64,000 nucleotides of DNA from Sarea resinae (Eukaryota): contig JAPEUD010000029.1 of NCBI GenBank assembly GCA_026026165.1, positions 124,001 through 188,000 of the forward strand, read 5' to 3'. Made by a program: the position numbers and the translations under genes. Below are positions 53,886-59,103 of the stretch, piece by piece. The number at the start of each line of letters is the position of its first letter. The stretch's first letter is position 1. The notes under the pieces were generated by a model. It was not told the origin of the DNA, ran no database searches, and was given only the letters and a program-made list of their open reading frames with translations.

Positions 53886-54892
<1,007 letters not shown>

Positions 54893-55162: not shown

Positions 55163-56938
55163 CTACTCGCCAGGGAAACCGTTCCTCAAGTTATCATACT
55201 TGGTCTGTGGATATACAAGCGTGTTCAGGCTTCGATCCATTCTCCCACCATCATGGCCCCCAAGCTCCTTGAAAACCTAATCATGCTAGTTAGCATCACC
55301 GACTCGAGCCAGCTGAACAAGACGAAAAACGTCTGAACTCACAGTACTGATCAGACTCGCGTCCCCCTCCTTGTCGGCACTACTTTCCCACCACATGGCT
55401 CCACCTAACGCATTCTCCTCGACGAACCTCGCCTTCCGCCTCGCCATCTCCACAGTATCATAGCTGACCATGATCCTCTGCTGCGGGTCAAAACTATAGG
55501 TCGCGCCGGCCTCTTGGTCGGTTCTTTCCTCGGCGCCAGGCTTCGGGAGCGCTTTGTAATCCCACACGCCGTTTTCCCAGCTGCCCTCGCCGACGCCGCT
55601 GAAGGGCTGGCCCGGGCCTTCTGTGCTAGAGAAGGCGCGCCCGTACAGGGGCATGCCGACGACGATCTTGCACGCGGGAACCCCGTGCGACGTGTAGTAT
55701 GCTATGGCGCTTGAGGTCGCGAAGGGGGTGGATGCTGGGTTGGAGGCGCTGGGGTAGAGGTTGGATTGGTGGCCTGCTGTTGGATCCCAAGAGCCGGCGT
55801 AGTCGTAGCTTCATCACAAAGTCAAATCAGGATGACTGGAATAAAAGGGGAGGGATTTCTCGCAGGAGGGGTAGATCAGAGGGGAAAGGGGTTACAATGG
55901 GCTGAGCTTACGCCATAAGATTCCAGAAGTCTAGATACCGGTCCATTTCTTTGAGGTGCAGCTTTTCATAGTTGCTTGGACCTAGTTCACAGATTAAGCA
56001 CACACAGCTAGGAAAGGGGCATATAAGAGAGAGGCTAACCAGCCGGGCTAGCGATAGTAAGCTGGAACCTGCTGTCACCGCCCTGTCGAGATGCGCACTG
56101 GTCGAGGGCCTGGAATGAAGCCAGTTAGACGAAGCTCCATAAACAAAAGATATCTGCACAAGAGGTTCTAGAGCCTGCTCAGAAGGGGACAAACTCACAG
56201 ATCTCGTCTCCTGAAGTAGCGAAACAAAGTCCATCGCCTGGCTATCATCTTTACGGCTGTCAGCAGATAGAACAATATATCAGAGTCATGGCCTACTTTG
56301 AGGGTATTCCCAATCAATATCCAGGCCTGTGACTATCAGCACTGTTCATCTCAGTTCTGAAATGAATGACGAAGTTTCTCACCATCAAGACCCAAGTCCT
56401 GGACGAGCTGAGTAGCAGACTCGGCAAACTTTCTTCTCCCCTCTGGAGTTGATGCCGGCTGCGCAAAATTCGCGGAATACGTCCATCCTCCGATAGATAG
56501 TAAGATTTTCAGGTGTCGGTGTTTTTTCTTGAGCAAGAAGAGCTGCTTGATACAGCCGTAAACGTTGGTGCCGCTGTCATTCCACGAGTCACTCGGGTAG
56601 TGTTTGTCTGTGTCCGACCAAGTATCTGTGAGATAGCTATAAAGAGAAAGAAGATTAGAAATGAGATAGACGGAGCTGGCAATGTCCAGGTAAGAGAAGA
56701 ATGCAATTACACTTCTCCGCTATCCGGTCGTACGTTGGCAAATGCGTAGAGCACATGAGTGAGTTTGTCTGCAGGCAGATCTTGAGGATTGTGGGACCGC
56801 CCGTAGATGGCCTTGAAAAGGTTCAGCGTCCATTGTCAAAGATGTTGCAGATTGTCTATGCACGAAAATACTGAGGGGAGTGTTGCATACCCAGTTGACA
56901 AAATAGGCCACTGATTTGTATCCGGCGCCGCCCCCCAT
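55163..56938 (-). CDS. GH18 subgroup A (bacterial-type, ChiB-like) chitinase; about 9 exons; no ATG-initiated signal peptide
   Basis: [35 protein letters not shown]; intact catalytic [50 protein letters not shown]. Confidence 0.95.
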
Positions 56939-57652
56939 GCTTGCGGTTCTATATTTATTATCTACGGGTTTGACTGAGGAACACAATTCAGATCTTGGAC
57001 GACGAAGAAGCAAAGCACCGAGCAGTGAAGCAATGACGAGGGGGACAAGGAAAATCAAATATATTCGGCGAGCCAGCTTGAAGACGAATTCAATGAAAAC
57101 TTGCGGTCACGTCGGTAGCCGAGGTGCCGTGGCCGCGTAATGAGGCCACTCATGCAGGGCACAGATTCAGGCGCAGTTCGTATTTCTCGGTGGCTATCCA
57201 TCGTAAATATAGTAGGAGTCCGATGTTTGCGTGTCATCTTATGCATCTGAGAATGTCGATAGATGCTTCACGATTCAGGTTGTGTACGATTGGCAAGAGG
57301 CGGGAGCCATGGGCAGTGGCTGGCGTCGTCATTGATCACCGTGACACAGCCCTGCCATGTCGTTTACATTACCTTGCCTCACCCTACGCGGCCCGCTTCG
57401 TCATGGGCCTGGCACCCTCATGAGAAACAAAGATCAAGATGTTGAAGTATTCGTTACTCGTCTCATATGTACATGAATTTGCCCTTTGTCTGATTGATTT
57501 TGTAACGAATGTCCAATGGTATTCGCTGATAAATTCAAGTGCGCTTACAACACCGTGCCCTGTGAAACTGCCCAAGTCCTTAACTCCGGGTTTCATATGC
57601 CAAAGTGCCGTACTCTGACTCCTCAAACGATTGTCCACATCTCACCGTCACC

Positions 57653-58663
57653 TCAGCGCTGACCGTCGCCCCCATCCCTCGGCATGCCTCCGCTCGCACA
57701 TACGTCCGGCGGGGGAGGCGGCAGCAGCCTCCTAGGATCGGTCTGGACTTGTGGTTGAGACAGATCGTAGTCCACAGGTTCCCGCATTCTTAGAAAGCTC
57801 TGTATCCTCTCATCTCGGGTCGTGCCTGGGTTGATGACGCCTTCTCTTGCGCGTCGTAAATCTTCGCTAGAACTTTTATGGATCTCTTCATGATGGTCCA
57901 GGAGCGTGTTCGAGAAGTTGTTGGCCCGTGTACCTTGCACAATACCACCCAGAGCTGCGAGCAGGCCAATCAAGGACACAAACACGCCGTTCGAGAAATA
58001 GACCGGCTCTTGTGGGGACTTTGCATCTCGCTGATACCACTTCTCCCAATCTTCCCAAGTGGCATTTCCAGCCGGCGAATGGCCACCCCAAGCGTGTGCG
58101 TCCGCCCATCCCCGGCCGTTGGTACGACTGCCGATATGAGGATGACCATTCCAACCCGCACCATAACGGTCATAGGCGCTTCGTTTTGACGGATCTGATA
58201 GAATATCGTTTGCGGCAACCACCAGTCTGTACCGTTCCAGTCGAACAGCATGTGAGATGGAGTCGGGGCCGGTGTCGTCACTCAGGTGATAACGATCGGG
58301 ATGATAAAGCTTGACTAGTTCGTAGTATCTCCGCTTCGAATACGGTGCTCCTTTCTTCTGATTGAAGATCTGATAAGGCGTGGGTGTAGCATGGGCGCTC
58401 GGAGTGTGCGGCCAGTGCAGGTGTTCATGACGATGACCGTGCCGACGATCGTGACGATGGTGGTGATCGTGTTCGTTTACGGTCGCATATGTCCTCGTCC
58501 CTGTCCCTGGCCAGTTCCTCGACTGCGTTGGCGTCGATGGCGATTGGGATTGCAGATTGAGGGTGAAGGGAGGCGGTGACGTAGTAAGCTGATGATTTGG
58601 CTGGCAGAAGGAGTGGAAGCCGGTACAGGACGAGGGCACGATGATGGCCTTTTTGATGATCAT
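57653..58663 (-). CDS. J-domain (DnaJ/Hsp40) co-chaperone, Jid1-like, probably mitochondrial; single exon
   Basis: PTPYQIF; YYELVKLYHPD; ANDILSDPSKRSAYD; NATWEDWE; one TM segment; basic N-terminus with RTYA. Confidence 0.88.
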   Translation of the reverse strand: MIIKKAIIVPSSCTGFHSFCQPNHQLTTSPPPFTLNLQSQSPSTPTQSRNWPGTGTRTYATVNEHDHHHRHDRRHGHRHEHLHWPHTPSAHATPTPYQIFNQKKGAPYSKRRYYELVKLYHPDRYHLSDDTGPDSISHAVRLERYRLVVAANDILSDPSKRSAYDRYGAGWNGHPHIGSRTNGRGWADAHAWGGHSPAGNATWEDWEKWYQRDAKSPQEPVYFSNGVFVSLIGLLAALGGIVQGTRANNFSNTLLDHHEEIHKSSSEDLRRAREGVINPGTTRDERIQSFLRMREPVDYDLSQPQVQTDPRRLLPPPPPDVCASGGMPRDGGDGQR

Positions 58664-59103
58664 CTTGAGGCTTGGGCTCCACAAGACAGAGGGTGACTGT
58701 CACTTTCTTTCACGTTCATCGAAATGCGAATGGCGAAGACGGCAGATGAGAAGTAGAGCAGGCGGGGTGCATTGGATATCTCGGCGTCTACTTCGCACAT
58801 CCACTGATGGGATACTACTGAGTGAGGTACCTACCTATGTAGTGCACCTGGAGGGCACTTCGACTCCGAGTGAGGTAATCTTGGTCATCGTCGATAGGAT
58901 GTAAGAGGGGTGTCAACCCGCTACCCGTACCTGCCTTAGTAGTACGCGACCGATACCCGTCGCGACCATGGAGGTTAGCCGTCGTGTTCGACCCTGGGAC
59001 ATTTGTGTTGACAACTGGCGGGCATCTATGTTGCGAGCAGTGGCTGCTTTCTCAGTCATGCACAATTCGATCTGATGACGGTTCGGAGGTCACTGCAGTC
59101 GTC

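Follow-up and report, generated by a model that had tools for sequence, protein, structure and literature searches.

Yeast invertase SUC2 is made in a secreted and a cytosolic form from two mRNAs, and PTEN-L is a mammalian long form started at a CUG codon. The neuronal pentraxin receptor is likewise described in CUG and AUG forms in the available part of one report (bioRxiv 10.1101/2024.02.16.580719). Here we analyze a chitinase gene of glycoside hydrolase family 18 (GH18) in a 64,000-nucleotide stretch of the fungus Sarea resinae (assembly GCA_026026165.1, contig JAPEUD010000029.1, positions 124,001 to 188,000; hereafter the window, with coordinates counted from its first base). The gene is annotated from an ATG directly ahead of the catalytic domain, and a CTG upstream of that ATG may start a second, membrane-anchored form. 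As in the three proteins above, the choice of start site would decide whether the product carries a secretory or membrane segment at its N-terminus. These proteins belong to other organisms and other protein families, and SUC2 relies on alternative transcription starts, not on leaky scanning.

In fungi, a weak AUG or near-cognate codon followed by a targeting sequence and a strong in-frame AUG is presented, in the available text of Wallace et al. (2020; PMC7049704), as a common device for dual targeting, and weak AUGs and near-cognate codons are reported there to have been swapped several times in dual-start genes. These DualAUG and DualNCC genes resemble the window gene in having a weak upstream start, a targeting segment (a putative one in the window), a strong in-frame AUG and few intervening AUGs, and they resemble the chitinase family in the interchange of weak AUG and near-cognate codons between species. 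However, the genes covered in that text mostly carry mitochondrial presequences (e.g., those of aminoacyl-tRNA synthetases), whereas the window gene has a putative 20-residue hydrophobic anchor on a glycoside hydrolase, and the chitinase side of the comparison is known from sequence alone. A second related case is cpc-1 of Pezizomycotina, for which the accessible part of Ivanov et al. (2017; PMC5487733) reports that near-cognate starts flanked by A at -3 and G at +4 are conserved. Like the chitinase gene, cpc-1 has an ATG-less in-frame leader that is kept open across Pezizomycotina under purifying selection. Unlike the chitinase anchor, the cpc-1 extension is about 180 residues long and lies amid upstream open reading frames (ORFs), with no targeting role described in that part of the source, and the chitinase extension, unlike that of cpc-1, is started by ATG in many species.

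Subgroup-A chitinases without a signal peptide have been called intracellular or "unconventionally secreted" (PMC12954445, in part). For ChiB of Aspergillus nidulans, the major extracellular autolytic chitinase, the choice between non-classical secretion and lysis "remains to be shown" according to the available text of PMC3527191. The ChiB proteins of A. nidulans and Aspergillus niger belong to the same subgroup as the window product and are, like it, annotated without a signal peptide in the parts of these two sources that are available; the window gene, in contrast, comes from another class of fungi. No anchor is mentioned in the accessible portions of PMC8042737 and PMC3257436, which deal with such chitinases, and a literature search that left subscription journals largely uncovered found no report of an N-terminal anchor or of alternative initiation in these chitinases, also when it was directed at non-AUG signal peptides.

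The chitinase gene lies on the minus strand of the window, and the coordinates of its features are given in Table 1. The frame of the main ATG was open for 56 codons back to the in-frame TGA and, as the initial annotation had stated, held no in-frame ATG. The remaining two frames 5' of the main ATG stopped after 3 and 7 codons. No ATG of any frame was found within 215 nt 5' of the main ATG, and none lay between CTG 57076 and the main ATG. This CTG, which sits four codons ahead of the hydrophobic core, was the sole in-frame near-cognate codon ahead of the core having a purine at -3. The extension read from it comprises 46 codons, (L)ARR followed by IYLIFLVPLVIASLLGALLL and then by RRPRSELCSSVKPVDNKYRTAS. 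The core had a Kyte-Doolittle mean of 2.67 over 19 residues and of 2.79 over 15 residues; its length of 20 residues and this hydrophobicity are compatible with a membrane segment. Basic residues lie on either flank. The initial annotation was correct in all its minus-strand coordinates (ATG 56938, TGA 57109-57107, CTG 57076 and ORF end 57055), and the CTG context and the 46-codon extension of ARR, core and linker that it gave proved exact on re-reading the sequence.

With its 20 residues, the core would suit a signal anchor more than a signal peptide that is cleaved. The window also departs from the classical cleavable signal peptide in that the leader has no ATG and the internal Met is present. 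Classical secreted subgroup-A chitinases of the Ech42/ChiB1 type, represented here by L004, L013, L068, L071, L079 and P0120, share with the window gene the GH18 class V catalytic domain and the AYFVNW start of that domain. Unlike the window gene, they have a short signal peptide with a propeptide and a single ATG preceded by A at -3 (5/5 distinct loci of these paralogues), and they lack the Met at the start of the domain.

To compare N-termini across the family, we searched for homologues with the largest exon as the query, which returned 1151 proteins at E <= 1e-20, and sorted the best 120 of the 1151 by N-terminus. These 120 consisted of 25 fragments or proteins without the N-terminal motif, 48 short models, 2 intermediate ones and 45 with an ATG-started extension. 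All but one of the short models (47/48) started with Met, and individual inspection of short models placed that Met a few residues ahead of AYFVNW, often within MGGG. The 45 annotated extensions were 35-85 residues long. A hydrophobic stretch, defined as a Kyte-Doolittle 19-residue mean of at least 1.7, was present in 44 of the 45, and 41 of these 44 had a basic residue among the first 10 positions. A Met 5-14 residues ahead of AYFVNW, corresponding to the start site of the short models, was retained in 44/45 extended proteins, the lone exception being P0120 with its classical signal peptide. The extended forms came from Xylariales, Pyricularia, Coniochaeta, Phialemonium and Xylona, plus other sources. 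Separately, P0003 and P0004, from two Pyricularia species, share the N-terminus MP(A/T)SRIHSIPFT, and the P0003 model is without the core and linker of P0004, a contrast that probably reflects differing predicted splicing between the annotations.

We also scanned metagenome DNA with an 18-sequence alignment and obtained 80 loci. The frame was traced 5' of the conserved Met wherever this was detectable, which was the case in 49 sequences (45 distinct), the window among them; the frame statistics come from the 37 distinct leaders for which 200 nt or more of upstream sequence was available. The in-frame leader was the longest of the three frames in 27 of the 37 (binomial p ~1e-6; 26/36 excluding the window). 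The median open length was 56 codons in frame versus 22.5 off frame, and 8 of the 74 off-frame leaders were open for at least 56 codons. Hydrophobic leaders numbered 24/37 in frame versus 3/74 off frame, which argues that leader composition is not the cause of the hydrophobic reading. The architecture of the orthologues was that of the window, with a basic residue, about 20 hydrophobic residues, a polar linker, the conserved Met and the catalytic domain. The initial annotation had looked to orthologous leaders for an open and hydrophobic frame; this held in the two counts above, but not in six loci, weighed below, in which the frame closed early. As a side observation, L001 and L002 are the nearest DNA relatives of the window gene, and the linker QEITYRHSHIISKH is common to both.

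Synteny was consistent with this picture. A ubiquitin-fusion gene adjoins the chitinase in L007, L008, L018, L020, L048, L050, L056, L060 and L073. It is convergent and 3' of the chitinase in the window and in eight loci; in L008, unlike the convergent loci, it lies upstream on the same strand. The main Met was detectable in 6/8 of the convergent loci, and 5 of these 6 carry the extension. The ubiquitin-syntenic loci are positional orthologues, and the synteny is kept across distant fungi. Intronless contigs of 1.4-2.2 kb were considered as possible transcripts and rejected: they had no poly(A) tail, some included part of the ubiquitin gene, and intronless copies also occurred on long genomic contigs, against a transcript origin.

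The start codons of these leaders differed in strength. The upstream ATG of anchor-type leaders had a pyrimidine at -3 in 14/17 cases, and the main ATG had a purine at -3 in 43/45 and G at +4 in 31/45. Eleven leaders, the window included, were open for at least 42 codons without an in-frame upstream ATG, and their 15-residue Kyte-Doolittle means were 1.86-3.00. In seven of these 11 (the window, L012, L022, L052, L055, L061 and L077), a CTG or GTG preceded by A at -3 lay in frame no more than 15 codons ahead of the core; L016, L037, L047 and L051 had no such codon. The two other frames of the same leader stretches contained zero CTG or GTG codons with A at -3. The CTG context of L022, AAG-CTG-GCT, is identical to that of the window, and the ATG of L039 (MVTAQRLAL...) aligned base for base with the GTG of L061 (VAPIQRLAL...) and of L077 (VASFQRLAL...).

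The path between the two starts was also clear. Across 22 leaders, three ATGs were found between the upstream start and the main ATG, versus 9.6 expected from codon shuffles, and 19/22 leaders had zero. At the sequence level, then, the family shows the features of dual-start genes, namely a leaky upstream start, a conserved strong downstream AUG and few AUGs or none between them. Upstream a weak AUG or a near-cognate codon in strong context, downstream a strong AUG, and an unobstructed stretch in between: this combination is the expected signature of leaky scanning. In L016, a two-codon upstream ORF (ATG-CAC-TGA, 1748-1756) lies in frame directly 5' of the ATG-less open hydrophobic leader; it could stem from a mutation of the start region or from an error in sequencing, or could be a minimal upstream ORF.

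The two ATG-less leaders L061 and L077 were aligned as DNA, with no peptide guidance, over about 100 columns from the GTG. Differences at codon positions 1/2/3 were 9/4/20 (chi-square p = 0.0023), and identity was 64/97 on the 3' side of the GTG and 25/62 in the 100 columns on its 5' side. A peptide-guided alignment of the same pair gave dN/dS of 0.19, versus 1.3 and 4.8 in the shifted frames. Since peptide guidance biases an alignment toward the frame, the DNA-level result is the more trustworthy. Weaker signals in the same direction came from L061/L039 (p = 0.08) and L077/L039 (p = 0.12), and pairs with L052 were not significant. L061 and L077 show what reads as purifying selection on the leader frame. 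The features of the leader, their recurrence in orthologues and this selection on the orthologous frame are thus all visible in the sequences compared.

The presence of the same hidden extension in related fungi suggests that the window gene probably makes both an anchored and a cytosolic form. In the mechanism that we propose, a subgroup-A (class V, ChiB-like) GH18 chitinase would be translated from an mRNA with two in-frame start sites. A fraction of the scanning ribosomes would initiate at CTG 57076, a near-cognate codon in optimal context, giving a form of 446 residues that consists of a short basic N-terminus, the 20-residue signal anchor, the 22-residue linker and the enzyme. This form would enter the secretory pathway and would most likely be membrane anchored, with its catalytic domain on the lumenal or outer side. 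The majority of ribosomes would bypass the CTG, cross the ATG-free stretch and initiate at the strong ATG 56938, giving the 400-residue cytosolic enzyme that is the annotated product. We infer that the transcript includes the CTG and that ribosomes use it, and likewise the topology in the membrane and the proportion in which the two forms are made.

Our confidence differs between the parts of this proposal. It is very probable that the dual-start architecture of the family is real and under selection. For the window itself, the balance tilts toward a CTG form that is made and functional, and two isoforms from leaky scanning seem, with similar reserve, the best explanation of the gene. The initial annotation, which had proposed a near-cognate anchor and leaky-scanning isoforms, gains support here from comparative evidence only, namely the orthologue architecture, the codon contexts and the alignment of ATG with GTG. 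The connection that it drew with "unconventional" ChiB secretion is plausible. Its further suggestion of a modulating out-of-frame ORF fared less evenly. The ORF exists and ends at 57057-57055, and its frame holds further ATGs at 57201, 57237 and 57246, but it had no consistent counterpart in orthologous leaders.

Several observations weigh against leaky scanning as the source of two isoforms. The counts for the 45 extended proteins are not independent, since many of these come from Xylariales. Both ARR and RRPR flank the core, and the positive-inside rule therefore leaves the topology unfixed. The L001/L002 pair had no coding signature. The core is degraded in L002 (2370-2530) and retained in L001, which suggests decay of the anchor in some lineages, and the frame was shut within 5-26 codons in L010, L019, L031, L034, L048 and L069, which have plainly lost the extension. 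All-against-all BLASTP and Smith-Waterman comparisons found no significant similarity between the window extension and other extensions; its best partner was L016, whose score equalled the highest reached in 400 shuffles, so the link to orthologues rests on architecture, position and synteny. The window extension was also only marginally coding-like, with a log-likelihood ratio of 0.02 per codon versus 0.10-0.15 in the exons of the gene and a GC content at third codon positions (GC3) of 0.36 versus 0.53-0.76. Its codon-usage score, which covered 45 of the 46 codons, topped 55 of 58 intergenic pieces (intergenic median -0.31). In addition, the near-cognate starts of cpc-1 gave <1% of the main-AUG reporter activity in vivo, according to the available part of PMC5487733.

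The loss or degradation of the extension in the six loci and in L002, the codon usage and GC3 below those of the exons, the lack of alignment with any other extension, and the finding that initiation at near-cognate codons can be very inefficient in vivo (PMC5487733, available text) would all suit a leader that is a relic. An ancestral ATG-started anchor would then have lost its ATG, and only the short cytosolic form would be made, with an undecayed frame left in the 5' untranslated region (UTR). We consider this unlikely. The frame has stayed open for 56 codons while both others shut within 7, the window core is among the most hydrophobic seen, and a CTG in optimal context lies exactly at the start position of the orthologues. 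Moreover, a CTG or GTG preceded by A at -3 occurs in 6/10 of the other ATG-less leaders, in frame in every case, and the apparent purifying selection on the frame in L061 and L077 concerns leaders that are themselves ATG-less. It is more improbable still that the tract is simply a pyrimidine-rich promoter or 5' UTR that happens to read as hydrophobic in an open frame, with a coincidental CTG. The tract is indeed T/C-rich, such sequence tends to translate as Leu, Phe, Ser and Pro, and many leaders were screened for the initial annotation, so that an isolated case could arise by multiple testing. But chance is already disfavoured, with only a very small probability left to it, by the rarity of hydrophobic off-frame leaders at the same loci (3/74 versus 24/37 in frame), by the in-frame leader being the longest in 27/37, by the recurrence of the architecture in syntenic orthologues and by the internal Met kept in 44/45 annotated extensions.

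The long form could also arise by another route, through a spliced-in upstream ATG exon or through two promoters, one for a long and one for a short mRNA. The two TATA-like elements, at 57211-57204 and, inside the extension, at 57063-57056, would be compatible with this, the TTCAAG before the CTG matches the AAG acceptor of intron 1, and some genes have alternative start sites as a backup to leaky scanning (Wallace et al., PMC7049704, available text). The initial annotation had named an upstream ATG exon spliced into the frame as evidence that would overturn its proposal, and a splice scan indeed gave six in-frame ATG exon/intron combinations. All six were weak, however, with poor donors (GTGATC, GTGACC) and without a CTRAY branch site; none used an acceptor at 57077, and the sole combination that keeps the core requires a 240-nt intron versus 51-103 nt for the introns of the gene itself. 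Furthermore, ATG-bearing orthologues start in the same exon, directly ahead of the core, and a long mRNA from two promoters would have no in-frame ATG and so would still need the CTG. We therefore give this route little weight, and two isoforms from leaky scanning remain our preferred explanation.

Searches with the leader itself returned little. Pfam gave only DUF4229 at 17.7 bits, under its cut-off of 27, and this was disregarded. A word-based search for proteins, run on the 62-residue extension joined to exon 1 and on longer lengths, brought up 242 candidates, of which none scored. A full phmmer search of 1.84 billion representatives, with the 72-residue leader and exon 1 as the query, yielded 2 matches, which were taken as compositional; they consisted of many repeated stretches, 19 in a protein of 2040 residues and 8 in one of 497 residues.

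The identity of the gene is well defined. The PF00704 profile (Pfam; cut-off 29.6) matched the exon at 55286-55810 with 109.1 bits and the exon at 56396-56635 with 48 bits. The best protein match was P0001 (400 amino acids), whose label gives a metagenome-assembled Sarea resinae genome as its source, and every 8-residue word of P0001 could be placed on the window gene, in nine blocks. The catalytic DxxDxDxE motif of GH18 is present when read across the intron at 56380-56328 and was found in P0001 too; D134, D137, D139 and E141 were invariant across alignment A1. The window gene was 65-73% identical to 17 ChiB-like members of subgroup A (class V), and its annotated start lies a few residues ahead of AYFVNW, as in that group. 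Exon 1 is followed by a GT intron beginning at 56890 on the minus strand. Intron 1 uses an unusual AAG acceptor, and its 3' end (56812-56817) is the same TTCAAG that forms the six bases 5' of the CTG (57077-57082, minus).

The short form would begin with MGGG (56927-56938, minus). By motif rules that we take to apply here, removal of the Met would leave an N-terminal Gly and might allow N-myristoylation. MGGG occurs in many family members, and its Gly run exceeds the single G needed by the start-codon context. Among the neighbours of the gene, the stop of the upstream DnaJ gene lies 577 nt 5' of the CTG, which sets a bound on the room for a chitinase promoter.

Table 1. Features of the chitinase locus and its surroundings, in window coordinates
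Feature	Position	Strand	Remarks
Ubiquitin-ribosomal protein fusion gene	54368-54892	+	Convergent, 3' of the chitinase
GH18 subgroup-A chitinase gene	55163..56938	-	9 exons, 8 introns; exon map from Pfam and P0001; stop TAG read
Main ATG	56936..56938	-	A at -3 and G at +4 (AGC-ATG-G); corresponds to the internal Met that the family conserves
Polar, basic linker RRPRSELCSSVKPVDNKYRTAS	56939..57004	-	22 residues; orthologue linkers polar, similar or longer
Hydrophobic core IYLIFLVPLVIASLLGALLL	57005..57064	-	20 residues; read from sequence
Out-of-frame upstream ORF (MSGLITRP...AEYI*)	57055..57153	-	Overlaps the CTG; ATG with T at -3; stop 57057-57055
Second TATA-like element TATATTTG	57056..57063	-	Within the extension; possible internal promoter for a short mRNA
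Basic n-region A-R-R	57065..57073	-	Read from sequence
CTG, candidate near-cognate start	57074..57076	-	TTCAAG-CTG-GCT; A at -3, G at +4
In-frame TGA closing the leader frame upstream	57107..57109	-	Read from sequence
TATA-like element TATATTTA	57204..57211	-	About 130 nt 5' of the CTG; putative promoter element
DnaJ-domain protein gene	57653-58699	-	Same-strand upstream neighbour; Pfam 28.7 bits; His/Arg-rich stretch HDHHHRHDRRHGHRHEH

The gene is best read as a case of a known mechanism, dual targeting by leaky scanning, in a new family, with a secretory or membrane anchor placed on a GH18 enzyme. The arrangement is apparently common across Pezizomycotina, and annotation conceals it in part. 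More tentatively, the "leaderless" autolytic chitinases of the ChiB type could, throughout Pezizomycotina, be two-isoform genes in which an anchored minor form provides the route of secretion and the ratio of the forms is set in translation. If so, the minor form, made from a codon of purposely low efficiency such as a weak AUG or a CUG or GUG in strong context, would bear the signal anchor and would bring ChiB-type enzymes to the wall and the medium, resolving the paradox that ChiB is secreted yet has no signal peptide. Starvation would lower the strictness with which start codons are chosen and raise the use of near-cognate and weak starts, coupling autolysis of the wall to nutrient stress. 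Signal-peptide prediction on annotated starts would then underestimate the secretome, and a secretory example would join the fungal dual-targeting device, which the available text of PMC7049704 describes mainly for mitochondria. A hidden anchor that is conserved and whose start codon can be tuned would offer these enzymes a simple entry to the secretory pathway.

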